Assembly: GCA_046704425.1 (NCBI GenBank)
Contig: JBJKRX010000018.1
Location: 20,385 to 84,384, forward strand
Length of the DNA: 64,000 nucleotides
From: Nitrospirota bacterium
GTDB lineage: Bacteria > Nitrospirota > UBA9217
Direction: 5' to 3'
How positions within the stretch are numbered: position 1 is the first letter of the stretch; each line of letters starts with the position of its first letter. Below are positions 2,261 through 60,654 of this stretch, one piece after another. Below the pieces are notes generated by a model. That model searched no databases. It saw nothing but the letters and a program-made list of their open reading frames with translations, and had not been told where the DNA came from. The translations under genes and the position numbers were made by a program.

Positions 2261-3985
2261 ATGAGGACCCTGCGCGTTGCCGTGGCCCAGATCAACCCCG
2301 TGGTCGGCGACCTGGCCGGGAACCGGGACAAGATCATCTCGTGCATCAACCGCGCCCGGCGGATCTCGGCAGACATCGTCGTATTTCCCGAGCTCGCCTT
2401 GACCGGCTATCCTCCCGAGGACCTGGTGTTCAAACCCCAGTTCGTCAAGGACAACCTGCGAACGCTCCGGCAGATCGTGCGTGTCGTGCGCGGTATCACG
2501 GCGATCGTCGGCTTCGTGGACAAGAAGGATTGCCTCTACGACGCGGCAGCGGTCATCAGCAACGGCAGGCTCGTGTATACCTATTACAAGATGCTGTTGC
2601 CGAACTATGGGGTCTTCGACGAGTACCGGTATTTCACGCCCGGAGACCGATTCCCCGTCGTCACCGTCAAAGGCGTCAATATGGGAGTGAACATCTGCGA
2701 GGATATCTGGTTCAGCGACGGCCCGGCGCGCACCCAGGCCCGCGCCGGTGCCGAGGTCATCGTCGCGCTCAACGCATCCCCGTACCACAAGGGCAAGGGC
2801 AAGGAGCGTCGGCGCATGCTCGCCGAGCGCGCCCGGCAGAACCGCGTTGCCGTGGTCTATGCCAACACCGTGGGCGGCCAGGACGAATTGATCTTCGACG
2901 GGCACAGCATGGTCCTGGCGACCGACGGCAGCCTGCTCGCATCGGGGAAACAATTCGAGGAAGACTTTGTCGTCTGCGATCTCCGGTTCCCCGGCCCCGC
3001 CCGGAGCGGCGCGGACACGGCGTTCGGCCGGATCCGAAACGAAGAGCGGGAACGGATCGATGCGATCGTGATCTCCGACAGACCGGCGACGAAGAAGCGG
3101 CCGCTTCCTCGGCAGCGTAAGTCGCGGCCCCTCTCGCCCTGCGAGGAGGTCTATCGCGCCCTGGTGCTCGGGACGAGGGACTACGTCAAAAAGAACGGGT
3201 TTAAGGCCGCGGTCGTGGGGCTCTCGGGCGGCGTGGACTCATCGCTCGTGGCGGCCGTGGCCGTGGCGGCGATCGGGAAGGAGAACGTGCACGGCGTCTT
3301 CATGCCCTCCCCCTTCAGTTCCGCGGAGAGCCGCGAGGACGCAACCGATCTGGCCCGCCGGCTCGACATCGATTTTCAAACCATCCCGATCCACCAGGCC
3401 TTCGATGCCTACCTCAACTCCCTGCGCGGCCCCTTCGCGCATACGCGGACCGGTGTGACCGAGGAGAATCTGCAGGCGCGCGTCCGAGGAAACCTCCTGA
3501 TGGCCCTCTCGAACAAGTTCGGCTGGCTCGTCCTGACCACGGGCAACAAGAGCGAGATGTCCACGGGATACGCGACGCTCTACGGCGACATGGCCGGGGG
3601 CTTCGCCGTGATCAAAGACGTGCCCAAGACGCTAGTCTACGAAGTCTGCCGCTGCATCAACCGGCTGGCGAGCAGGGAGGTCATCCCGCGCCGCGTTCTG
3701 GTCAAGGCGCCGACAGCCGAACTCCGACCGGGCCAGAAGGACAGCGACTCCCTCCCGGTCTATCCGGTGCTCGACCCGATCCTGAAGGCCTATGTGGAAG
3801 ACGACAAGGCATTCGACGAGATGCTCCGGATGGGTTTCCGTCGGAAAGACGTGGAGCGCGTTATCCGGCTGGTCGATGCGAGCGAGTATAAGCGGCGCCA
3901 GGCCCCACCCGGCCTCAAGATCACGCCGCGCAGCCTCGGAAAGGACCGCCGCTTTCCGATCACGAACCGCTACCGAAGCTACTGA
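2261..3985 (+). CDS. nadE: Glutamine-dependent NAD+ synthetase (N-terminal CN-hydrolase domain plus C-terminal NAD synthetase domain)
   Basis: The N-terminal nitrilase-like domain reads MRTLRVAVAQINPVVGDLAGN...FPELALTGYPPEDL. The C-terminal PP-loop reads VVGLSGGVDSSLVA...LVLTTGNKSEMSTGYATLYGD. Confidence 0.85.
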   Translation: MRTLRVAVAQINPVVGDLAGNRDKIISCINRARRISADIVVFPELALTGYPPEDLVFKPQFVKDNLRTLRQIVRVVRGITAIVGFVDKKDCLYDAAAVISNGRLVYTYYKMLLPNYGVFDEYRYFTPGDRFPVVTVKGVNMGVNICEDIWFSDGPARTQARAGAEVIVALNASPYHKGKGKERRRMLAERARQNRVAVVYANTVGGQDELIFDGHSMVLATDGSLLASGKQFEEDFVVCDLRFPGPARSGADTAFGRIRNEERERIDAIVISDRPATKKRPLPRQRKSRPLSPCEEVYRALVLGTRDYVKKNGFKAAVVGLSGGVDSSLVAAVAVAAIGKENVHGVFMPSPFSSAESREDATDLARRLDIDFQTIPIHQAFDAYLNSLRGPFAHTRTGVTEENLQARVRGNLLMALSNKFGWLVLTTGNKSEMSTGYATLYGDMAGGFAVIKDVPKTLVYEVCRCINRLASREVIPRRVLVKAPTAELRPGQKDSDSLPVYPVLDPILKAYVEDDKAFDEMLRMGFRRKDVERVIRLVDASEYKRRQAPPGLKITPRSLGKDRRFPITNRYRSY

Positions 3986-14328: not shown

Positions 14329-14443
14329 CCGTCCTCCGGAATCCACACGCACAAACTCAACTATTTAATAGCATAATCTGCGGAAAATTGTCAAGCCTTA
14401 AATTCCCGCGGGCGGGGGCGCGGGGTGCAGCGGAGAGGAATGC

Positions 14444-15088
14444 CTAGAGGGATCGCAGGATGCCGATGACCTTGCCGAGGATGCGGAATTCTCCCCCGCT
14501 GACGAGGATCGGCGGCATGTCCGCATTCTCCGGTTGGAGTCTTACGCGTCCGTGCTCGCGGAAGAAGCGCTTGACCGTGGACTCACCGTCCACGAGGGCG
14601 ACGACGATCTCTCCGTTCCGGGCCGTGGACTGTTCCCGCACGAGCAGCATGTCCCCGTCCAGGATATGCGCGCCCACCATGCTCTCGCCGCGCGCCTGCA
14701 GGGCGAAAAGCTGTTCGGAGCTCCGGAGCGAAAAAAGCGCAAGGTCCACCGCCACCTCACCCTCGCGGTTCTCGGGTGCGTGGACGGGCAGTCCCGCGGC
14801 GACACTGCCCAGAAGCGGCACCGTCGCTGACCGGCGAATTGTTCCGCGTGCGATCGTACCGCGCGATCGGCCCCGCTCGCGCGTAATGAGGCCCTGTCGT
14901 TCGAGGGCCGCAAGATGGCCGGCAACGCCGTTCGTCGAGCGGATATTGAACTCTTTTCCGATCTCGCGCAGCGATGGCGGGATGCCCCGTTCTTCCGTCG
15001 TCCGGCGGATGAACTCGCAGATCAGACGGCGGCGTTCGGTAATGTCGCCCGCGCAGGTCTTTGCTGGTCTTTTCGGTCTTCCCGTCAT
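14444..15088 (-). CDS. lexA: LexA repressor
   Basis: The product has an N-terminal HTH (LREIGKEFNIRSTNGVAGHLAALERQG), the Ala-Gly cleavage site (VAAGLPV) and the S24 peptidase motifs GESM...VKR. It starts 8 nt after the dinB stop. Confidence 0.9.
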   Translation of the reverse strand: MTGRPKRPAKTCAGDITERRRLICEFIRRTTEERGIPPSLREIGKEFNIRSTNGVAGHLAALERQGLITRERGRSRGTIARGTIRRSATVPLLGSVAAGLPVHAPENREGEVAVDLALFSLRSSEQLFALQARGESMVGAHILDGDMLLVREQSTARNGEIVVALVDGESTVKRFFREHGRVRLQPENADMPPILVSGGEFRILGKVIGILRSL

Positions 15089-15096
15089 GATGTCTC

Positions 15097-16326
15097 TCAG
15101 TACAGCCGGTCTCCCGCAGGCCGCCAGGCCGGGGAGAGGATCCGTTCGTGCGGGTGGAGGTCCATGAGCGCGGCCCAATTGACCGTGCGTTCGCCGTAGC
15201 GGTCGTTGATCTCGTCCATGGCCTGCATGAGCGTCTGTTGCCTGCGCTCGCCTGAGAACAGTGCGAGCTGGGCCTCGTCCCGTTCCAGGGCTGCGATGCT
15301 CACGCCCACAAGCCGCACGGGCCGGGCGGGTCGGACCTCCTGCAGGATATCCCGCGCCACCGCGGCAATGTCCGGTCCGAGGTCCACAGAGCGCGGCAGA
15401 CGCCGCTGGCGGGAAAAGGTATGAAAATCCGCGTACCGGAGCGTCAGGGTCACGGTCCGGCCGCGATAGCCTCCCCGCCGCAGCCTGCGGCCGACCTTTT
15501 CCGCGAGTTCCGATACGTACCCGGCAAGCAGGGCGGGATCGGTGCAGTCTTCGCGCAGGGTCATGCCGTGCCCCATGGATTTGTTTGGTTCGTCTCCCTG
15601 ACGGTCTGCGGGCTTGACGGGATCGTCGTCGATGCCCTGCCCCATCTCCCGGAGCCGCTCGCCGACGATCCCGAACCGGGCAAGGAGCAGCGGAAACGGA
15701 GCGCGGCCGAGTTGCCCGCAGGTCCGGATCCCCATTGCCGCGAGCTGGCGGGCCAGACTCGGGCCGACGCCGCACAGGTCCTTGACGGGCAGGTCTTCGA
15801 GCACGGCGGCGACGTCCTCCCGCGGGATGAGGACGAGCCCGTCCGGTTTCTGCATGTCGCTGCCGAGCTTCGCCAGCAGCTTGTTCGGCCCGATGCCGAT
15901 GGAGCAGAGGAGCCCCGTTTCCCGCCAGATGCGCTCCTTGAGTGCGACGGCCATCTGTACGGGATCGCCGAAGAGCAGGTCGCAACCCGTCACGTCGAGA
16001 AAGGCCTCGTCGATCGAGAAGAGCTCCACCAGCGGCGTATAGTCCCGCCAGATCGCGAGCAACCCCTCGCAGGCATCCGTGTACTTTGCGGAATCGGCCG
16101 GTACCAGTACCAGTCCCGGACAGACCCGCCGGGCCTCGCCGTAGGTCATGCCGGTCCTGACCCCGAAGGCCCGTGCCTCGTAGGAGGGCGAGAGCACCAC
16201 GCCGCGGTGCGCCGATCCGATCACGGCCATTGGCCGGTCCCGGAGCGCGGGGTCGGCCCGCTGTTCCACCGAGGCGAAGAAGGCGTTCATATCGATGTGG
16301 AGAATGGTCCGTTCACCCTGCCGCAT
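15097..16326 (-). CDS. dinB: DNA polymerase IV (Y-family)
   Basis: The product begins ILHIDMNAFFASVEQ and contains SIDEAFLDVTG, which are Y-family polymerase motifs. The length is 409 aa. Confidence 0.85.
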   Translation of the reverse strand: MRQGERTILHIDMNAFFASVEQRADPALRDRPMAVIGSAHRGVVLSPSYEARAFGVRTGMTYGEARRVCPGLVLVPADSAKYTDACEGLLAIWRDYTPLVELFSIDEAFLDVTGCDLLFGDPVQMAVALKERIWRETGLLCSIGIGPNKLLAKLGSDMQKPDGLVLIPREDVAAVLEDLPVKDLCGVGPSLARQLAAMGIRTCGQLGRAPFPLLLARFGIVGERLREMGQGIDDDPVKPADRQGDEPNKSMGHGMTLREDCTDPALLAGYVSELAEKVGRRLRRGGYRGRTVTLTLRYADFHTFSRQRRLPRSVDLGPDIAAVARDILQEVRPARPVRLVGVSIAALERDEAQLALFSGERRQQTLMQAMDEINDRYGERTVNWAALMDLHPHERILSPAWRPAGDRLY

Positions 16327-16555
16327 GCAAGATCCTCCAACGGAATGTTCCAGTATGGAAGGTGATGTCGTACAGCCCCTGGCCGTCGGTCACCGAAAAG
16401 TGGAACACGCGGGCGTCCCCTTCCCGGGTCTTCCAGGCGAGCGCCGTTTCCCGTATGCGAAGCTGCCTGCCTCTCCAGGAGAACCAGATCGGCCGGATCG
16501 AGCCGTTGTTGAAGACCGCGCAGACCGATATGGCTTCATCCACCGTGACCGTCAT
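16313..16555 (-). CDS. Small SOS-promoter-proximal ORF (about 80 aa), uncharacterised; overlaps the dinB start by 14 nt
   Basis: The product is MTVTVDEAISVCAVFNNGSIRPIWFSWRGRQLRIRETALAWKTREGDARVFHFSVTDGQGLYDITFHT.... Its ATG lies about 7 nt downstream of the -10, so the transcript appears leaderless. The composition is not the Arg/Ala-rich pattern typical of antisense artefacts. Confidence 0.4.
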   Translation of the reverse strand: MTVTVDEAISVCAVFNNGSIRPIWFSWRGRQLRIRETALAWKTREGDARVFHFSVTDGQGLYDITFHTGTFRWRILHAAG

Positions 16556-16562
16556 GGATGAT

Positions 16563-16591
16563 AGTATAGTGAACATTTGTTCACTTGTCAA
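16563..16591 (-). promoter_or_regulatory. SOS promoter TTGACA-17-TATACT with LexA (Cheo-type) box GTGAACAAATGTTCAC in the spacer (about 16568-16585)
   Basis: The minus strand reads cccTTGACAagtGAACAAATGTTCacTATACTatcatccATG. The GAAC-N4-GTTC palindrome sits directly upstream of the small ORF, dinB and lexA, which suggests an autoregulated SOS operon. Confidence 0.6.
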
Positions 16592-16618
16592 GGGGGAAAA
16601 TACGGAGGGAGGGATCCC

Positions 16619-17032
16619 TTACGCGGTTTCGCGGCTGCGCAGGAATTTCCCGAACTTCATGTCCAGCTTCATGATATGGGCGACGATCCAGTCCACGATC
16701 ACCTGGTTCGTGGTCGCGGAAAGATCATAGGTGCTGCCCTGGATGCGCGGGAGGGATGCCTGCTGCTTGAGCTCGGCGATGGCGTCGAGATACCGCTTGT
16801 GGTCCCGCTGCTGCTCTTCCAGGCCGTCGTACCCGGCCTCGCGCATGCGACGCTCCTCCTCGGCGAAATGGATCCGCGCATAATCGTCGAGGAACTGGAT
16901 GGTACCGTCGATCTCGGCCTTGCAGCGCTGCTGTTTGATCGCCAGGACCAGGTTATTGATCCGTTTGAACAGCTCTTGATGCTGGCTGTCGATGGTTTTA
17001 ATACCAATGCTCAGCGATTCATTCCATTCCAT
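16619..17032 (-). CDS. Bacteriohaemerythrin
   Basis: The product begins MEWNESLSIGIKTIDSQHQELFKRIN and contains HFAEEERRM and WIVAHIMKLD, the haemerythrin His/Glu ligand pattern. The start was set at MEW inside the longer track ORF. Confidence 0.8.
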   Translation of the reverse strand: MEWNESLSIGIKTIDSQHQELFKRINNLVLAIKQQRCKAEIDGTIQFLDDYARIHFAEEERRMREAGYDGLEEQQRDHKRYLDAIAELKQQASLPRIQGSTYDLSATTNQVIVDWIVAHIMKLDMKFGKFLRSRETA

Positions 17033-18524: not shown

Positions 18525-19283
18525 TCACGGCTGCCGCTCGGCGGACAGGAGAAACTCCACGTTCCCGTCCTGGCCCGTGATCGGCGATGGGATCACGCCC
18601 CGCACCGTAAAGCCGAGGTCCCGGACGACCGTGACTACGCGCTCCACTACTGCGCGCCGCACCTCTGCGTCCCGTACGATCCCGCCCTTGCCCACCTGCC
18701 CCCTGCCCACCTCGAACTGCGGCTTGATCAACGCGATGAGCTCCGTCCCCGGACGGAGGAACGGCAAAAGAGCGGGGATGACCTTTTCGAGGGAGATGAA
18801 CGAGACATCGATGACGACGAGATCGATGGGATCGGGGACCTGGGCCGGGGAAAGAGAACGGATGTTCGCGCGCTCGATCACGACCACGCGCGGGTCCTGC
18901 CGCAGCTTCCATGCAAGCTGCCCGTAGCCCACGTCTACGGCATAGACCTTCTGCGCGCCCTTCTGCAGCAGACAATCGGTGAATCCGCCTGTCGAGGCCC
19001 CCACGTCGAGACAGATCCGCTTCTGGACAGCGACCGCGAACCCTTCCAGCGCAGCCGCAAGCTTCACGCCTCCCCTGCTCACGTAGGGCAGGTCGTCTCC
19101 GAGAATGCGGATTGCGGCCCCTGCCGGAACCAGCGCACCTGCCTTGCTCTGTTTCTGTTCGTTCACCAGCACCTGGCCCGCAAGGATCAGGGCCTGGCCG
19201 CGCTCCCGGCTCGCGACCAGCCCCCGGCTCACGAGGAGCCGGTCGAGCCGGAGCTTTCTCTCCTGGGACGGTTTTCCGTTCAT
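18525..19283 (-). CDS. tlyA: TlyA-family rRNA 2'-O-methyltransferase (S4 domain plus FtsJ-like MTase)
   Basis: The product has an S4-like N-terminus (LRLDRLLVSRGLVASRERGQALI) and the SAM-binding motif LDVGASTGGFTD. Confidence 0.8.
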   Translation of the reverse strand: MNGKPSQERKLRLDRLLVSRGLVASRERGQALILAGQVLVNEQKQSKAGALVPAGAAIRILGDDLPYVSRGGVKLAAALEGFAVAVQKRICLDVGASTGGFTDCLLQKGAQKVYAVDVGYGQLAWKLRQDPRVVVIERANIRSLSPAQVPDPIDLVVIDVSFISLEKVIPALLPFLRPGTELIALIKPQFEVGRGQVGKGGIVRDAEVRRAVVERVVTVVRDLGFTVRGVIPSPITGQDGNVEFLLSAERQP

Positions 19284-22574: not shown

Positions 22575-25500
22575 TCAATATTCTTTCCATAGCTCCAGCG
22601 CGTTCCGTGCAATGCGGAAGCCGATCTGCTGGAAGGCCGCGGCGTAGGCGCTCTCTGCGGCAGGCTCGTTGTTAATCGTTTCGATCAGGACCCGGGGGAG
22701 AGGGGTGAACTCGCGGAGCAGCATCTCCCTCAATACCATGCCGTAGTCCCGGAGCCGCGGATCCTCCGGGGCCGCCGGGATCTCGAGCGTCCTTCCGCGG
22801 CGCTTCACGATCATGACAAGCCTGCCCCCGTGGTACACGAGCGAGGTCGAAACAAGCCGCGGCGGAAGACCGGCAAAAGGAGCGAGCCCTAGTCCGCAGA
22901 GCGATGCCGGATCGGCAGCGTTCATCCAGAATACCGCGTCCGGCGGCAGCGGCTCCTGCAGCATGCGAAACGCCTCGTGCGAGACGAACTGCGGTCCGGA
23001 AATCCCCGCAAAGAAATAACCCGCAAGGACCTCGCCGGAAAGCTCCATTAACCGCAGGGAGCGAAAGAGAGCCCGCCACTGGAGCAGGGGGAGCTCGTTC
23101 TGCAGCAGCTCGCGGAACAGAATGCCGTAGCGCTTGAAAAGCTGCCGGATGCGGTCCTTCATCAGCTCTTCGTCTTCCAGAAGGTCCTGTTCCCGCTCAG
23201 GCGGATCGATCCGAAGCCAGTGCCCTTCCAACGGACGGGACAGCTTCCAGCGATTGAATCCGGACCTGCGCGAGGGCGGTCTCCCGGCATCACCGACGGC
23301 CCGGGCGGTGAACCCCGTGACGGCGCCCTGCCTGATCGTTCGGAACGAATCGCTCGTCACGTTCCCTTTCCAGGCCTCCTTCCACAGCAGTTCCGTGGCC
23401 CTGACCGTGTCCATGCGGGAGAGATCGATAATCTCCGAAAAACGATACTTGCCGCGCCGGTCGGGGATCAGGCGGGCAAGCTCGTCGTCGTGCTCTGCTG
23501 TCGCGTCGGGTGTGCGGAACAGTTCCAGGTCCTGGTGGAACGCGAGGCTGATGCGCTTCTGCCCGCAGCCGAACCAGACAAGATCGCTTTCGCTCATGAG
23601 CCTGTCCAACCATTCGCCCCGATAGGGCTTCATGCGGCTGGGCAGGAGGTGCTCTTCCCAGGCCGCAACAGGTGCGGGCCAGCCGAAGAGCTGTTCCAGG
23701 CGGTTCTGGAGGTCCTCCGGGGACTCCCCCCGGGGGGTGATGCCCTGGAAGGCTGCAAGAAAAAGCGGAAGCTGCTCAGGCAACAGGGCGGTGAAGGAGG
23801 GCCTCCGGTAGCGCCGCGCCATGCGAAGCAGCATCTCGAGATTTTCGCTGTCGCAGAGCTCGAGGGTCCCGCTCGCTTCGCCGAACCGGTCCAGGATGAG
23901 GTCCCCCGACTCGATCAGGGGTTCCACGGCCTCGTCCAGCCGCTCCGGGGTGACGCCGAGCAGGTGATGGAGCTGTTCCTTTCCGATGGGGCCGTAGTAG
24001 GCGAGAAAGCTCGCGAGGAACCCGGAGAGGTCGTACTCCTCGGGGATCGTCGTGCCTTTGCGAATGAAGCTTAGTGCCCTTCCTTTCGCGGTTTCGCCGG
24101 ATTCTTCTCGGGAAACCGGCGTTATGTGCAGATCCTCCGGGAGGAGCCGGAAGGCGACAAGGATCCTCGGCAGGCTTTCGAGGGCTGCGAGAAGAGGATG
24201 TGCGACCCCGGGCCAGGTCAGCCAGGCGAGCTTCTTCACCTGGGCATGGAGCCACGCAGCGGGATCGACGCCAATGTCTTGCCTGATCGCGACGGCAAGC
24301 TCCTTCCACTCAGGCTCGGGGATCAGCAGCCGCTCCTTCACCCAGTCGAGCAGTTCCCGGGGAGAGCCGGGCGCGTAGCCCGTTGCCGAACGCTTCAGCT
24401 TTTCGTCGAGGATGCGGAACAGCGCATCGGGGATCTTCGGACGCAGGTGCGGGGAGAACAGCAGTTCTTTGATCAGATCGGGCCGCAGGTTCGATCCTTT
24501 TGCCGTGAGCGGCGTGTCGTCTTCGTACATATACCTGTTCGTCTGCTTCCAGACGAGGTGGGAGGCGAAGGGAGAGGCGGCGCGCGTCACGGTCTCGCTT
24601 ACGGCGATCGAGCGATCGTGCAGGTCGTCGAGCACCTGCTTCAGGTTTGCGAGGTCGAATTCGTCCTCCAGACAGGTCCTCCAGGTCTCGATCAGGACCG
24701 GGAAGTCCTCATACCTGCGGATCGACTCGAGCAGCTCCTTGGACCGGAGCCTGATGAGCCAGAGCGGCATGCGGCGCTTGAAGCTTGCCTTGGGGAGGAG
24801 AAGCGCCCGCTCGGCGTTCTCCCGGAACCGGGCCCCGAAGAAGCCCGTCTGTTCCAGCTTCTTCCGAAGAAATCCTTCCACGTTCTCGGCGTTCAGGAGC
24901 CCGAGGACCTCCCCAGCCGCTGTCTCGCGCGGGAGCATGAGCAGAAGCGCGTCGTCTGCCTCGATCACCGAGAGCGGCGTGTGCTCGCGCTCTTCCCAGG
25001 CCTGGGAGAGGGCAAGCCCGAAGGGCCGGTTCACCCTTCCGCCCCAGAAGGTGTGGATGATCATCTGCCGCTGCTCGCCGCTACCAGCAGGCTCTTCGAG
25101 GTGTTCGATCAGGATATGGTGGCGGTGTGGCAGGCTTTGGCCGGTCGCCTCTTTCTGAAGCCTCAGGAACAGGACAAGCTCGTCGGCCGCGGTCTCTTCC
25201 ATGGCATGGCCTTGGATGAGCCCGGTCTTGAACGCCGGGTCGCCGAGCCGCTTGTCCGCATCTTCGAGGAACAGCCCGATCCGTTCGGAGAGGTGGAAGT
25301 CTCGGTTCAGTTCCTCCGCCTTCCAGAAAGGGAAGATGCCGGCAGCGGAATGTGCGGGAAGGACCTCCACGTCGTTCGGGGTGATCTTCTCGATCCGCCA
25401 GAGCTGCGATCCCAGGGTGAAGGTATCGCCGATGGACCGCTCCCAGACGAACTCTTCGTCGAGCTCGCCGATCTTGGCGCGCGAGTCCTTGAGCCGGAGA

Positions 25501-56595: not shown

Positions 56596-58443
56596 TCATT
56601 CGGTTGGTACGCCCGGTCCTGGGGCCTGCTGAAAGTACGCGACGATTTCGCGGGCGGTCTTCCGGCTCATCCCCGGAAGCGCTGCCAGTTCCTCCTCCGA
56701 CGCCTGCCGGATCTTCTCCACGCTGCCGAAATGACGCAGGAGCGCCTTCTTCCTCATCTCCCCGACGCCGGGCACGGCGTCGAGCACCGAGGCAACCGCC
56801 CGTTGTCCGCGCAGCTTCCGGTGGTAGGTGATCGCGAACCGATGCGCCTCGTCCCGCACTCGGGCCACCAGGTGCGTGGTCGCGCTCGTCGGGTCGAGGA
56901 CCACCGGCTCCTCCACGCCTGGGAGAAAGACACGCTCGAACTCCCGCTCGGCGCCCGTCTCCCCGCTCCGCGCCTTGGCCAGCCCGATCACGTCCGGTTC
57001 GGTCACCCCGAGGCCGGCCAGCGCGTCGAGCGCCGCATTGAGCTGCCCCTTGCCGCCGTCGATCAGGATGAGGTCGGGCAGCGTTCCTTCCTCCAGTGCC
57101 CGCGCGTATCTCCTCCCGACCACTTCGGCCATGCTCGCAAAATCGTCCTGCCCGGTTACGGTCCTGATCCGGAACCGTTTATAGTGCCGCTTGTCCGGCA
57201 GGTTGTTCGCGAAGCGGACCATGCTCGCCACGGGCTCCGTGCCCTGGATCTGCGAGATGTCGAAGGCCTCGATCGTGCGCGGCAGGTTCTTGAGTCCCAG
57301 CTCCTCCTGCAGCTCCGCGAGGACGCGTTCCTTGCTCCGCTGCGAAAGCTGGTGTTCCCGCAGCGACTGCGCCGCGTTGTCCGAAGCCATCCGGACCAGG
57401 TCGCGCTTCCTGCCGCGCTGGGGTACCTGGACCTCCACGCGCCCCTCGCGCTTCGTTGCGAGCCAGGCCTCGAACACTTCGCGGTCGGGCAGATCGCGGG
57501 GCAGCAGGACCTCGGCGGGAACGATCATCTCCTTGGCATAGAACTGGCGCAGAAAGTCGGCGAGGACCTCCTCCTCGGAGAGACCGCGCACGTCGTCGAG
57601 AAAGAAGTCCTTCCTGCCGACCATCATGCCGTTCCGGATGAACAGCACCTGGAGGTCCGCCCTGCCCGCTGCCGACGCCGTGCCGACCACGTCCTGGTTC
57701 TCGAACCCCGGGGAAACGACCTTCTGCTTCGCGAAGGCCCCTTCGATCTTCGCGATCCGGTCCCGCAGCTCGGCGGCGCGTTCGTACTCCGTCCGCGCCG
57801 ACGCCTCTTCCATGCGCCGGCGCAGCAGGACGAGCAGGTCGCGGTTCTTCCCTTCGAGAAAGAGCCGTACCTGCTGCACCATGTCGCGGTACGCTGCGTC
57901 GTCGATAGCGGCGGAACAGGGCGCCAGGCATCTGCCGATCTGGAACTGGACGCAGGGCCGCTCGGGCCGGTCCTTCCGAAACTCCTTTTTACAGGACGCG
58001 AGCGGGAAGGTGCGTCGTACGAGCGCCAGCAGCTCCCACATGCCGCCGGCCGGCACATAGGGACCGTAGTACGTTGCGCCGTCCTTCTTTAAACGCCGGA
58101 CCACTTCGAGCCGCGGATACGGGGAGGCGAGATCGAAACGGAGGTAGGGGTAGTTCTTGTCGTCCCGCAGCACGATATTGTAGCGCGGATGATGTTTCTT
58201 AATGAGGTTCGCCTCCAGGACCAGGGCCTCGAGCTCCGTATGGGTCACGATGGTCTCGAGGTCCGCCACCTGGCGCACCATGAGCTCGGTCTTCTCGCCT
58301 TTCGGCCCTTTCTGGAAATAGGAGCCCACGCGGTTGGCAAGCGACACCGCCTTCCCGATGTAGATGATATGGCCCCGCGCGTCCTTCATGACATAGACGC
58401 CCGGTTCGTCCGGCAGGGTTTGGAGTTTTTCCGCAAGGGTCAT
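56596..58443 (-). CDS. uvrC: Excinuclease ABC subunit C
   Basis: The 615-aa product has an N-terminal GIY-YIG domain (GVYVMKDARGHIIYIGKA), a UvrB-binding region, and a C-terminal RNaseH-like and HhH domain. The upstream extension of the long track ORF, which runs antisense to aspC, is discarded. Confidence 0.9.
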   Translation of the reverse strand: MTLAEKLQTLPDEPGVYVMKDARGHIIYIGKAVSLANRVGSYFQKGPKGEKTELMVRQVADLETIVTHTELEALVLEANLIKKHHPRYNIVLRDDKNYPYLRFDLASPYPRLEVVRRLKKDGATYYGPYVPAGGMWELLALVRRTFPLASCKKEFRKDRPERPCVQFQIGRCLAPCSAAIDDAAYRDMVQQVRLFLEGKNRDLLVLLRRRMEEASARTEYERAAELRDRIAKIEGAFAKQKVVSPGFENQDVVGTASAAGRADLQVLFIRNGMMVGRKDFFLDDVRGLSEEEVLADFLRQFYAKEMIVPAEVLLPRDLPDREVFEAWLATKREGRVEVQVPQRGRKRDLVRMASDNAAQSLREHQLSQRSKERVLAELQEELGLKNLPRTIEAFDISQIQGTEPVASMVRFANNLPDKRHYKRFRIRTVTGQDDFASMAEVVGRRYARALEEGTLPDLILIDGGKGQLNAALDALAGLGVTEPDVIGLAKARSGETGAEREFERVFLPGVEEPVVLDPTSATTHLVARVRDEAHRFAITYHRKLRGQRAVASVLDAVPGVGEMRKKALLRHFGSVEKIRQASEEELAALPGMSRKTAREIVAYFQQAPGPGVPTE

Positions 58444-58680
58444 GGTTCGCTCATTGCGGCGCCTTACGCCGCATGCCGCAGTATACGCCGGAACACGGCG
58501 TGCCCGCAAGCCGAGAGAAGCGTTTCCGCCAACAAACTCGTTGACTTTCCGTTGGTTCTGTGCTACATAAAATACTCCGTCATCCGCTGAGCGGCGATCC
58601 CCGGGAGCGGCATCCACTGCTCCCCGCCGTCCGGAGCGATCCGCAAGCAGCAGAGCAGAAGAAAGGAATTCCGCATTCCG

Positions 58681-59874
58681 ATGGGTATCGCAAAACGCGC
58701 ACGCGCAATCAAGCCCTCTCCCACCCTTGCCGTTGCCGCAAAGGCAAAGGCCATGAAGGCCCAGGGGATCGACGTAGTGGATTTCGGCGTAGGCGAACCG
58801 GATTTCGACACGCCGGAAAACGTGAAGGAGGCCGCGATCCGCGCCATCCGGGACGGGTACACGAAGTACACGCCTGCGGGAGGGACCGACGAGCTCAAGG
58901 ACGCCGTGATCGAGAAGTTCAAACGGGACAACGGCCTCGCCTATGAACGGTCCCAGGTGCTCATCTCCTGCGGCGCGAAGCACAGCCTCTACAACATCGC
59001 CGAGGCCCTGTTCGATCCCGGGGACGAGGTCATCATCCCCGCTCCCTACTGGGTCTCCTACCCCGATCAGGTACTGTTGAACGACGCCCAGCCGGTGATC
59101 GTCGCGACCACCGAGGAAGAGGGGTTCCGGATTTCCGCGGACGCGCTCGCGCGGGCCGTAACGAAGAAGACGAAGGCCCTCATCCTGAACAGCCCCTCGA
59201 ACCCGACGGGCCTGGCCTACGACCGCAAGACCCTGGAGGCGATCGCGAAGCTGGCGGTGCAGCACGACTTCTACGTGATCTCCGACGAGATCTACGAGAA
59301 ACTGCTCTACGACGGTTTCACCCACGTGAGCATCGCCTCGCTGGGCGACGCGATCAAGGAGCGCACGATCACGGTGAACGGGGTCTCCAAGTCGCACGCC
59401 ATGACCGGCTGGCGCATCGGTTACGCCGCCGGCCCGAAGGATGTGATCGCCGCCATGGCGAACATCCAGAGCCAGAGCACCTCGAACCCCACATCCATCT
59501 CCCAGAAGGCTGCCGTCGAGGCGCTGCGGGGTCCCCAGGACTGCATCGGCATCATGAACGCCGAGTTCGACAAACGGCGCAGATACATGATCGAACGGCT
59601 GAACGCGATGCCCGGCGTCTCCTGTCTCATGCCCGTAGGCGCGTTCTACGCCTTCCCGCGCACGGCCGCGCTCTACGGCAAATCGCTCGCGGGACGACGG
59701 GTCGCAAACTCCTCCGACCTTGCCTCCCTGCTGCTCGACGAGGCCCAGGTGGCCCTCGTTTCCGGAGACGCCTTCGGCGCCGATCCCTATATCCGGCTCT
59801 CGTACGCAACCTCGCTGGAATCGATCCGGAAGGGCCTCGACCGTATGGAACAGACAATCGCCCGGCTGCGTTAG
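58681..59874 (+). CDS. aspC: Aspartate/aromatic aminotransferase (class I PLP fold)
   Basis: The product contains LNSPSNPTG and the PLP-lysine region VNGVSKSHAMTGWRIGY. It is 397 aa. Confidence 0.85.
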   Translation: MGIAKRARAIKPSPTLAVAAKAKAMKAQGIDVVDFGVGEPDFDTPENVKEAAIRAIRDGYTKYTPAGGTDELKDAVIEKFKRDNGLAYERSQVLISCGAKHSLYNIAEALFDPGDEVIIPAPYWVSYPDQVLLNDAQPVIVATTEEEGFRISADALARAVTKKTKALILNSPSNPTGLAYDRKTLEAIAKLAVQHDFYVISDEIYEKLLYDGFTHVSIASLGDAIKERTITVNGVSKSHAMTGWRIGYAAGPKDVIAAMANIQSQSTSNPTSISQKAAVEALRGPQDCIGIMNAEFDKRRRYMIERLNAMPGVSCLMPVGAFYAFPRTAALYGKSLAGRRVANSSDLASLLLDEAQVALVSGDAFGADPYIRLSYATSLESIRKGLDRMEQTIARLR

Positions 59875-59910
59875 CGGCCGGCGCATTACGCAGAAGGGGG
59901 CATCCGAACT

Positions 59911-60654
59911 ATGAAAATCGTAACCTCCGTACTGGCTGCACTGCTCGTGCTCGCGCTCGGCGCGGCGGCGGCGTTCTACTTCATGACCTATACGCCGATG
60001 GCCACCGACTATGCGCGAATGAAGGCCGGCCTCCCCGCATTCGACGCAGCAAAGGCAGAACTGAGGCAGTGCCAGGCAAAAGCGAAGGCGCAGGAAAAGA
60101 AGACGGCTGAGGAGCAGGCCTGGAAGGGCCCCGCCCTCGTGACCCTGCAGCTCGGACTTGCCGACGCGATCAAGGAGGGCAAGGCCGAGGTGCTGGACGC
60201 CGGGGACCGCCTGATCGTGAACATCCCCGAGAACGCGGTCTACCTGCACCATTCCTATGTCTTTCAGCGGCACAGTCCGAAACTGCTCGACCAGATCGCC
60301 TCATCGCTCAAGGACGACCGGCTCAAGGGCCTGGAGGTCACGATCGGGAACACCACTGATGCCGTCCCTGCGCGCGGCCGGGGCAGGAGGCGGATCCCCG
60401 CCAAATCAGCACGGGAACTGGCCGCCGACCGCTCGGGCAAGCTGGTGCAGTATCTGGAACGGGACGGTTTGAACGGCAACGTCATGATCGCGGCCGCCTA
60501 TTCGGCCCACCCGCCGAAGATCGGGACAGCGTTCCTGGACCATAAGGTGATCATCACGATCGAGAAGATGCCGCAGCTCCAGCCTGTTGCGACGCAGCAA
60601 AACGCAAAGCCCAAGATGATCCCGATCGTCCCGGCAAAGCCCAAGACACCCTAA
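59911..60654 (+). CDS. Membrane-anchored OmpA/MotB-like domain protein
   Basis: The product has an N-terminal TM (IVTSVLAALLVLALGAAAAFYF) and a coiled-coil. Its C-terminus is OmpA-like (SARELAADRSGKLVQYLERDGL). Confidence 0.5.
   Translation: MKIVTSVLAALLVLALGAAAAFYFMTYTPMATDYARMKAGLPAFDAAKAELRQCQAKAKAQEKKTAEEQAWKGPALVTLQLGLADAIKEGKAEVLDAGDRLIVNIPENAVYLHHSYVFQRHSPKLLDQIASSLKDDRLKGLEVTIGNTTDAVPARGRGRRRIPAKSARELAADRSGKLVQYLERDGLNGNVMIAAAYSAHPPKIGTAFLDHKVIITIEKMPQLQPVATQQNAKPKMIPIVPAKPKTP

Follow-up and report, generated by a model that had tools for sequence, protein, structure and literature searches.

Organization of the Locus

The locus lies on the minus strand of a 64,000-nucleotide stretch of DNA from a Nitrospirota bacterium, referred to here as the window. 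As read from the window sequence, it comprises a promoter with an embedded operator, an 80-aa open reading frame (ORF), a gene for a 409-aa Y-family polymerase, and lexA. The features are as follows.

16606..16619, minus strand: terminator-like hairpin with a T-run, found by a terminator scan, at the stop codon of the upstream hemerythrin gene
16586..16591, minus strand: -35 hexamer TTGACA, from the sequence and a promoter scan, identical in 19/19 Nitrospirota loci
16569..16584, minus strand: putative LexA operator GTGAACAAATGTTCAC, GAAC-N4-GTTC class, from sequence and conservation
16563..16568, minus strand: -10 hexamer TATACT, from the sequence and a promoter scan
16313..16555, minus strand: imuB-C, 80-aa standalone ImuB-C domain protein (Pfam DUF6504), from profile, homology and model
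16333..16338, minus strand: GGAGGA Shine-Dalgarno sequence of the polymerase gene, read from the sequence, inside the 3' end of imuB-C
15097..16326, minus strand: polY (dinB-like), 409-aa Y-family polymerase, from Pfam, NCBIfam and catalytic motifs
14444..15088, minus strand: lexA, 214-aa repressor, last gene of the operon, from TIGR00498, Pfam and residue alignments

The upstream neighbor is an ORF at 17032-16619 with a Pfam match to hemerythrin, and the hairpin at its end probably insulates the cassette promoter against read-through. The imuB-C and polY ORFs overlap by 14 nt, as the original prediction had stated for an ORF of about 80 aa and the start of the polymerase gene. The GGAGGA sits 6 nt ahead of the polY ATG, and lexA starts 8 nt past the polY stop. 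No clear intrinsic terminator is present 3' of lexA, where the predicted fold is no better than that of shuffled sequence, and Rfam returned no RNA genes in the 64-kb window.

A genome scan gave 28 loci, 27 of which were confirmed by a match to the small ORF. Next to the small ORF, a polY match is found in 25 of these 27 loci and a lexA match in 22. The gene order is small ORF-polY-lexA in Nitrospirota and lexA-small ORF-polY in Scalindua, other Planctomycetota, and Geobacter.

The Polymerase and LexA Proteins

The polY product matches the Pfam families IMS, IMS_C, IMS_HHH, and DUF4113, all above their cut-offs (E 1.5e-47 for IMS), and scores 316.6 bits against the NCBIfam DNA polymerase IV model NF002677, whose cut-off is 256. 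In an alignment with the solved Pol IV structure 7yll, its residues D12 and D106-E107 fall on the catalytic motifs, and judged by these residues the enzyme appears to be catalytically competent. A clamp-type motif, QLALF, occupies residues 353-357. A C-terminal RecA-NT-like motif, corresponding to DUF4113 (PF13438), spans residues 364-388 and scores 27.3 bits, above the gathering score of 24. The protein shares 48% identity with the polymerase of G. anodireducens pSD.

The product of the last gene scores 196.7 bits against TIGR00498 (cut-off 110.95) and contains the Pfam domains LexA_DNA_bind (PF01726) and Peptidase_S24 (PF00717). The Ala98-Gly99 cleavage site and the residues Ser136 and Lys173 align with those of the solved LexA 3k2z and of E. 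coli-type LexA.

The Small Protein Belongs to the ImuB-C Family

The original prediction described the small ORF as uncharacterised, a description that no longer holds. By profile and homology, its product is a standalone member of the ImuB-C / DUF6504 family (PMC3765255, PMC6511836), which dates from 2013, when it was defined on the Geobacter protein GSU0042 (PMC3765255). The 80-aa protein itself scores 22.5 bits (E 1.4e-4) against DUF6504 (PF20114), just under the gathering score of 24.2, and the Pfam family is matched by 63 of 106 members of the protein family, with a best E of 8.7e-9. The protein is 37% identical (BLASTP E 2e-17) to an ORF of G. anodireducens pSD that lies between lexA and polY (2741-2995 of L030), and tblastn places homologs in two Geobacter loci, L027 and L028, with E of 5e-13 and 5e-14. 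At E <= 1e-3, 752 representative clusters match the small protein, with E down to 1e-34. The residue W73 is kept in at least 90% of the 106 family sequences, and R30, R33, and R74 are invariant in the four closest sequences.

The AF2 model of the protein (pLDDT 95.5) has eight beta-strands and zero helices. A comparison of this model with solved PDB structures found no fold relative, which agrees with the published description of the ImuB-C fold as a 'novel fold' (PMC12926913). A PDB search with the family profile gave Affitin/Sac7d as its best match at an insignificant E of 0.21, and it was not used.

The ImuB of S. meliloti pSymA, whose gene is flanked by imuA and dnaE2, matches DUF6504 over residues 430-500 (E 0.0065), and the family profile aligns to its C-terminus with a weak hhalign E of 4.3e-4 (probability 34%) for this single ImuB sequence. 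The link to ImuB in the original ImuB-C report was in a similarly weak range, 1e-4 to 1e-5 (PMC3765255). A partial Y-family match from Rhizobium (H60/L031) had been considered for ImuB but does not represent an intact gene; the pSymA protein was used in its place.

It had also been suggested that the small protein could be an accessory factor of the polymerase, by analogy to YolD-like or UmuD-like partners. The partner role is in line with the literature, in which the small ImuB-C protein is viewed as a Y-family polymerase partner, but the likeness to YolD and UmuD has no Pfam or fold support. A UmuD- or YolD-type subunit would form an SH3-like barrel and insert an N-terminal arm into the polymerase, and the position of the gene, directly upstream of a Y-family polymerase and under LexA control as in umuD-umuC and yolD-uvrX, is what such a subunit would have. 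However, none of the 106 family members matches the YolD (PF08863) or Peptidase_S24 Pfam families, and no significant match to YolD or UmuD' was found, either between profiles or between structures, which makes an accessory subunit of that type extremely unlikely. The 80-aa ImuB-C beta-barrel is most likely a non-catalytic subunit of the active Y-family polymerase.

Promoter and Operator

The original prediction placed a TTGACA-17-TATACT promoter on the minus strand with a palindrome in its spacer, and these elements are found exactly where it put them. The 17-nt spacer reads AGTGAACAAATGTTCAC on the minus strand, and the 16-nt palindrome takes up 16 of its 17 bases. A promoter scan rated the site 11/12, the top of the 3.2-kb region, and a single strong sigma-70 promoter is present. 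The motif GAAC-N4-GTTC occurs four times in the 64-kb window, against 0.98 expected. The three remaining sites are within long ORFs, score less than 5 bits, and do not carry the GT/AC flanks; the full GTGAAC-N4-GTTCAC is present in a single copy. Box scores were taken from a matrix built on the boxes of related loci.

The strongest evidence that the promoter and operator elements are real is their conservation in 19/19 Nitrospirota loci, comprising the window and 18 related loci. All have TTGACA, a 17-nt spacer with the palindrome, and a TATA-type -10 element (TATACT in 11, TATAAT in 7, and TATATT in 1), and the spacer is always 17 nt. The same or a near-identical 16-mer occupies the same position in the 18 related loci. 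Since the geometry of promoter, operator, and ATG recurs in these 18 loci, it is real and under selection, and the earlier view of an SOS-type cassette whose promoter spacer is taken up by a GAAC-N4-GTTC palindrome is supported. In the lexA-first loci of Scalindua, a similar box is found at the promoter of lexA instead; thus, the box goes with the promoter of the operon.

GAAC-N4-GTTC is an experimentally established LexA motif in Firmicutes and Actinobacteria (PMC4951493), and in the literature searched we found no documentation of it as a LexA motif in Nitrospirota or anammox Planctomycetota. The loci analysed here suggest that both groups use this Gram-positive-type LexA motif. The box had been called atypical relative to deltaproteobacterial LexA boxes; that contrast falls away, as the synteny of flanking housekeeping genes identifies the host as Nitrospirota.

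The sequence of the palindrome by itself is not LexA-specific, because sites of the same class also adjoin TetR-family genes in metagenomes, where TetR-family regulators are encoded by 7 of the 79 ORFs that follow GTGAACA-N2-TGTTCAC sites. The palindrome might on this account be the operator of another regulator, for example of the TetR family, with a coincidental likeness to a LexA box. This is very unlikely: neither the window nor any of the 27 related loci has a TetR gene beside the cassette, the operon itself encodes LexA, the box shifts to the lexA promoter in lexA-first operons, and it fits an established LexA motif class.

Autoregulation of lexA from the cassette promoter, as originally proposed, is the simplest reading of the sequence, because lexA is tightly packed as the last gene and no strong second box occurs in the 19 loci. 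Besides the operator, no site in the Nitrospirota loci reaches 10 bits, save one weak extra site in L006.

Start of the First Gene

In the window, 7 nt (ATCATCC) separate the -10 hexamer from the imuB-C ATG at 16555. The distance is 6-7 nt in 17 of the 19 Nitrospirota loci and 12 nt in the remaining two, and a Shine-Dalgarno-like tetramer precedes the imuB-C ATG in just one of the 19. There is no room for a Shine-Dalgarno sequence before this ATG; a leaderless or nearly leaderless mRNA is therefore predicted. The earlier suggestion of a leaderless message, made from the spacing in the window, is consistent with this geometry, which is conserved in related loci.

The absence of a Shine-Dalgarno sequence leaves room for the view that translation of the 80-codon frame does not begin at the ATG at 16555, which would make it a transcribed leader or an ORF with another start. 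We give this view hardly any credence. Across three phyla the protein is conserved from its first residue, with E down to 1e-34, residues 2-8 form the first strand of the confident model, there is no other in-frame ATG, and the distance from the ATG to the -10 element is kept in 17 of 19 loci.

Scope of the LexA Regulon

Apart from the operator, the 64-kb window has no box that scores 5 bits or more; its genes include uvrC and one for an Lhr-type helicase, but not recA, uvrA, or uvrB. It is conceivable that this LexA is a repressor private to its own mutagenesis cassette and not a global regulator of the SOS response, with a palindrome that is unique or nearly so and with recA and the uvr genes controlled otherwise. 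The regions upstream of uvrC and of the helicase gene are among those free of such sites, and the flanks (+/-4 kb) of the 18 related loci are without extra boxes, save one weak site; the title of Jara et al. may be taken as a precedent. However, the window is 64 kb of a genome, uvrC is not a typical LexA target, and the GAAC-N4-GTTC regulons of Firmicutes and Actinobacteria take in recA and uvr genes (PMC4951493). On balance, we hold a private repressor to be unlikely, though deserving of real weight. It would alter the scope of the explanation given here for the operon and not its mechanism.

A regulon scan of metagenomes used the pattern GTGAACANNTGTTCACR, which was designed to leave out the cassette promoter itself, and gave 120 loci of mixed taxa that are not lineage-specific. 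The one recA match (L122) is from Lachnospiraceae and is uninformative on Nitrospirota. The 16-mer of the cassette operator also flanks this Lachnospiraceae recA, whose promoter has the same design, with one box in the -35/-10 spacer.

Proposed Mechanism

Taken together, the locus is very probably a translesion-synthesis operon of a Nitrospirota chromosome, with the order imuB-C - polY - lexA, that is repressed by LexA and induced by DNA damage. In an undamaged cell, a LexA dimer would occupy the 16-bp palindrome in the spacer of the near-consensus sigma-70 promoter and block RNA polymerase. Upon DNA damage, RecA-ssDNA filaments would prompt the self-cleavage of LexA at Ala98-Gly99 through the Ser136/Lys173 dyad, and the promoter would fire. 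Transcription would begin at the imuB-C ATG or 1-2 bases off, and the first cistron would be translated leaderless, while the polymerase gene would be translated from its own GGAGGA within the end of imuB-C. Fresh LexA made from the same transcript would re-close the operon as the RecA signal fades.

At the protein level, the RecA-NT-like motif of PolY may recruit RecA into a PolY-ImuB-C-RecA mutasome. Such a mutasome was proposed by Timinskas and Venclovas, and the complex comes from published AlphaFold modelling, not biochemistry. Damage induction is reported for the Geobacter lexA-imuB-C-polY operon, which is described as a single transcription unit (Jara 2003, as cited in PMC6511836). A more far-reaching proposal is that, in this Nitrospirota lineage, LexA governs solely the leaderless imuB-C-polY-lexA transcript that encodes it. 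What is left of the SOS response would be a self-contained, damage-triggered module for mutagenesis, inherited at a fixed chromosomal site, with the standalone ImuB-C barrel as the obligatory activating subunit of an active PolY-RecA mutasome, and the lexA-last order behind a leaderless cistron would delay re-repression to give a pulse of translesion synthesis. We regard this proposal as quite improbable.

Comparison with Known Systems

The closest known system is that of Geobacter sulfurreducens, lexA - imuB-C (GSU0042) - dinB/polY (Jara et al. 2003; Aravind et al. 2013, PMC3765255), placed in the 'GeoPolY-like' group by Timinskas and Venclovas in 2019 (PMC6511836), which has the same three gene families. 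It encodes a homologous small protein and a polymerase with the same RecA-NT/DUF4113 tail, and it is LexA-autoregulated. The three-gene kind is thus already described, and the present locus is a tidy but ordinary example of it. The two operons differ in order, with lexA first in Geobacter and imuB-C, polY, lexA in the Nitrospirota window. They differ also in the operator, which is GGTT-N10-AACC in Geobacter and a GAAC-N4-GTTC palindrome in the promoter spacer of the window; the exact Geobacter box is absent from the two Geobacter loci L027 and L028. In the window, unlike in Geobacter, the first cistron is predicted to be leaderless and there is no upstream SRAP gene. The phyla named in 2019 for the GeoPolY-like group were delta-proteobacteria, Deferribacteres, and Planctomycetes, and Nitrospirota was not among them (PMC6511836). 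Modestly new are the lexA-last order, the conserved and putatively leaderless start, and the occurrence of a LexA box of the Gram-positive type in Nitrospirota and anammox Planctomycetota. The lexA/imuB-C/polY mutagenesis module is hereby extended to Nitrospirota, and it can be rearranged, with lexA last, yet kept under a single operator. Current understanding is not overturned, and the biochemistry of ImuB-C is little more tractable here than in Geobacter.

The ImuA-ImuB-DnaE2 cassette of M. tuberculosis and of S. meliloti pSymA (L152) is also a LexA-regulated mutagenesis cassette, in which the C-terminal domain of ImuB appears to be of the same family and the Y-family component carries a RecA-NT-like motif. 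ImuB is inactive, whereas the polY product of the window has catalytic residues and its ImuB-C is a separate 80-aa protein; the window locus also has no imuA or dnaE2. In yqjX-yqjW and yolD-uvrX of B. subtilis and in umuDC (Pol V) of E. coli, a small accessory gene likewise lies directly upstream of a Y-family polymerase gene under LexA control, and the polymerase has a RecA-NT-type C-terminal motif as it does in the window. The accessory protein of the window is unrelated to YolD and UmuD in sequence and fold, as searches of it found no S24 peptidase, YolD domain, or SH3-like barrel.

The invariant promoter, operator, and predicted leaderless ATG make the operon a clean test case for leaderless stress-operon expression, and the 16-bp box is a useful starting matrix for SOS regulons in the mostly uncultured Nitrospirota and anammox Planctomycetota. 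The box has the same core dyad and spacing as the Cheo box of Firmicutes, Actinobacteria, and Gallionellales, and it likewise overlaps the promoter; its flanks are GT...AC in place of the usual Cheo C...G.

Organization of the cassette

The small open reading frame (ORF), the gene for a dinB-like Y-family polymerase (polY) and lexA lie together on the minus strand, with the following elements.

16591-16586, minus: -35 hexamer TTGACA
between -35 and -10, minus: 17-nt promoter spacer AGTGAACAAATGTTCAC
16568-16563, minus: -10 hexamer TATACT
between -10 and ATG, minus: 7 bases, ATCATCC
ATG at 16555, end at 16313, minus: small ORF, 80 codons
16338-16333, minus: GGAGGA ahead of the polymerase ORF
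16326 to stop at 15097, minus: polymerase ORF, 409 codons, starting 14 nt before the end of the small ORF
15088-14444, minus: lexA ORF, 214 codons, beginning 8 nt past the polymerase stop

The original prediction had described the arrangement accurately. The cassette promoter has the top score in the region in a promoter scan (11/12). The putative LexA operator in its spacer, a GAAC-N4-GTTC (Cheo-type) palindrome, scores 28.5 bits against a weight matrix derived from the boxes of related loci, and no other site in the 64-kb window reaches 5 bits. The window has four copies of GAAC-N4-GTTC itself, where about one would be expected; the three outside the cassette fall within long ORFs and do not have the extended palindrome. 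Downstream of lexA comes an M23-peptidase gene with a TTGACA promoter-like site of its own, some 40 nt past the lexA stop (14352-14400, minus), and no convincing intrinsic terminator was found between the two genes (fold z-score +1.4).

The lexA and polymerase genes

The last gene encodes LexA (TIGR00498, 196.7 bits versus a cut-off of 110.95); the protein comprises a LexA DNA-binding domain and Peptidase_S24. Aligned with solved LexA structures, it shows a cleavage site at Ala98-Gly99 and the catalytic residues Ser136 and Lys173. The middle gene encodes a Y-family polymerase with IMS, IMS_HHH and IMS_C domains, which is also matched by Pol IV models and has D12 and D106-E107 within conserved catalytic motifs. 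A clamp-type motif, QLALF, was read at residues 353-357, followed at the C-terminus by a DUF4113 match above the Pfam cut-off (residues 364-388), a segment corresponding to the RecA-NT-like motif of Timinskas and Venclovas (PMC6511836).

The small ORF belongs to the ImuB-C family

The small ORF, previously called uncharacterised, is a conserved gene of an already known family. Searching 1.84 billion representative proteins with a profile gave 752 relatives with E<=1e-3, of which 247 have E<=1e-10; the 150 matches listed all measure 68-127 residues. Alone, the small ORF scores near threshold against DUF6504, the Pfam family of the ImuB-C domain (22.5 bits against 24.2), and 63 of 106 aligned family members match it. 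W73 is present in 90% or more of the members. The domain was defined by Aravind et al. on Geobacter GSU0042, a beta-rich protein of ~80 residues whose gene sits between lexA and dinB and whose C-terminal Trp is conserved; their supplement lists the G. sulfurreducens order SRAP->LexA->ImuBC->DinB (PMC3765255). On G. anodireducens plasmid pSD, an 84-aa ORF between lexA and the polymerase gene shares 37% identity with the small protein (E 2e-17).

The suggested YolD-like or UmuD-like affiliation does not hold: none of the 106 aligned members matches YolD or S24, and a 2026 survey, which counts PolYs with ImuB-C as one of its association types, describes the ImuB-C barrel as having no related PDB structure and as differing from the SH3 barrel of UmuD' and YqjX (PMC12926913). 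S. meliloti pSymA carries an imuA-imuB-dnaE2 cassette, and residues 430-500 of its ImuB match DUF6504 (E 0.0065); the small-ORF family profile aligns weakly to this segment (hhalign E 4.3e-4, probability 34%), a strength comparable to that with which the link to ImuB was originally reported. Upstream of that cassette, and divergent from it, lies a dinB-like sequence (23695-24723 of the pSymA locus, minus) recovered as several separate tblastn pieces, which may be disrupted.

Gene order and host phylum

With each species represented by one genome, a scan gave 28 loci, 27 of them confirmed by a small-ORF match. Next to the small gene there is a polymerase match in 25 of these 27 and a lexA match in 22. 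Nitrospirota loci run small-polY-lexA; those of Scalindua, other Planctomycetota and Geobacter run lexA-small-polY. Inside the operon of several Nitrospirota relatives, an unrelated small gene for a TIGR02436 four-helix-bundle or TIGR04256 GxxExxY protein sits between imuB-C and polY (L002 2769-3227, L015 4294-4647, L016 4299-4658, L017 4350-4748 and L008 476-778), a curious repeated insertion at one junction. One relative has no lexA in the 2.2 kb that follow polY (L013, 5562-7801); in another the imuB-C frame is down to 40 codons, possibly by frameshift or pseudogenisation, with promoter and box intact (L021, 4001-4198).

The best 19 cassette matches are all from Nitrospirota, six of these loci share with the window the genes upstream of the cassette (hemerythrin, a DUF3786 Fe-S protein, ORF 18525-19283 and dxs) in synteny, at 63-77% amino-acid identity, and DsrK is encoded in the window; the cassette is therefore placed at a conserved site of a Nitrospirota chromosome, and the earlier contrast with LexA boxes of deltaproteobacteria falls away. 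No LexA motif for Nitrospirota or anammox Planctomycetota turned up in our literature search.

Promoter, operator and translation start

Among the window and 18 further Nitrospirota loci, all 19 promoters have a -35 TTGACA, a 17-nt spacer and a -10 of TATACT, TATAAT or TATATT, and the spacer contains GTGAACAAATGTTCAC, either intact or altered at one to three positions. Because these loci span AT-rich to GC-rich sequence, the identity of promoter and box reflects selection. The ATG lies 6-7 nt past the -10 in 17 loci and 12 nt past it in two, with an SD-like tetramer in only 1 of the 19 intervals. No locus has a second box between polY and lexA, so LexA expression would depend on the cassette promoter, barring an unrecognised constitutive one, in keeping with the predicted autoregulation.

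In the lexA-first loci of Scalindua, a similar box, GGTGAACAnGTGTTTACC, lies directly past the -10 of the lexA promoter; the box thus tracks the operon promoter, whatever gene comes first, as expected of the operon's own repressor. These promoters read TTGACA-17-TATATT ahead of the box (L022 ~720-800; L024 and L026 ~3310-3395), with the lexA ATG only 5 nt past it and no Shine-Dalgarno sequence, a geometry that would put the operator within a short SD-less leader of the transcript. GAAC-N4-GTTC is absent from the Geobacter loci, which agrees with the different Geobacter LexA motif. Two Geobacter-type lexA promoters (L027 ~3300-3390; L028 ~3295-3385) also lack an exact GGTT-N10-AACC and have in common an ATGGTT-N25-AACCAT inverted repeat across the region past TTGACA.

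Occurrence of the box beyond the cassette

GAAC-N4-GTTC is an established LexA motif in Firmicutes, Actinobacteria (PMC4951493) and Gallionellales. Within the window, the uvrC and Lhr-type helicase genes have no box, and recA, uvrA and uvrB are not among its genes. A metagenome scan, whose pattern excluded the cassette promoter and which returned mixed taxa not specific to the Nitrospirota lineage, gave seven TetR-linked sites, one recA site (Lachnospiraceae) and one UmuD-like/Y-polymerase pair. Of 79 ORFs downstream of GTGAACA-N2-TGTTCAC palindromes, 7 encode TetR-family regulators, and FAD/NAD oxidoreductase genes often accompany them; this palindrome class is evidently common to a TetR operator family. 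These sites show that the palindrome by itself is not LexA-specific and that the 16-mer serves as an SOS box in Firmicutes. The Lachnospiraceae recA promoter (L122 4923-5000, minus) has two Cheo boxes, one within the -35/-10 spacer (TTGACA-aagaCGAACAGATGTTt-TATTCT) and a perfect GTGAACATTTGTTCAC past the -10, before a GGAGG SD. At another locus (L093 36-1832), an S24 peptidase ORF is preceded by GTGAACATTTGTTCAC at a distance of 42 nt and can be aligned only with the UmuD-like C-terminal part of LexA; a Y-family polymerase gene follows, making the pair umuDC-like.

Proposed mechanism

In the best-supported scheme, LexA would occlude the strong cassette promoter until RecA-stimulated self-cleavage relieved repression on DNA damage. 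A leaderless transcript would then yield ImuB-C, the polymerase by SD-driven initiation, and LexA, which would close the loop. ImuB-C and RecA, the latter held through the RecA-NT motif, may assemble with the active polymerase; a PolY-RecA-ImuB-C complex has been proposed by Timinskas and Venclovas (PMC6511836). The novelty is modest: lexA stands last, the predicted leaderless start is conserved, and both the ImuB-C/polY/lexA module and the Gram-positive-type box are extended to Nitrospirota.

Other observations in the window

No Rfam family, tRNA included, reaches its gathering score in positions 1-64000. At 56596-60273 (minus) there is an open frame of 1225 codons in which UvrC models match residues ~610-1216 only; the N-terminal stretch of ~600 codons could be either a spurious extension due to high GC or another gene located upstream in the same frame.
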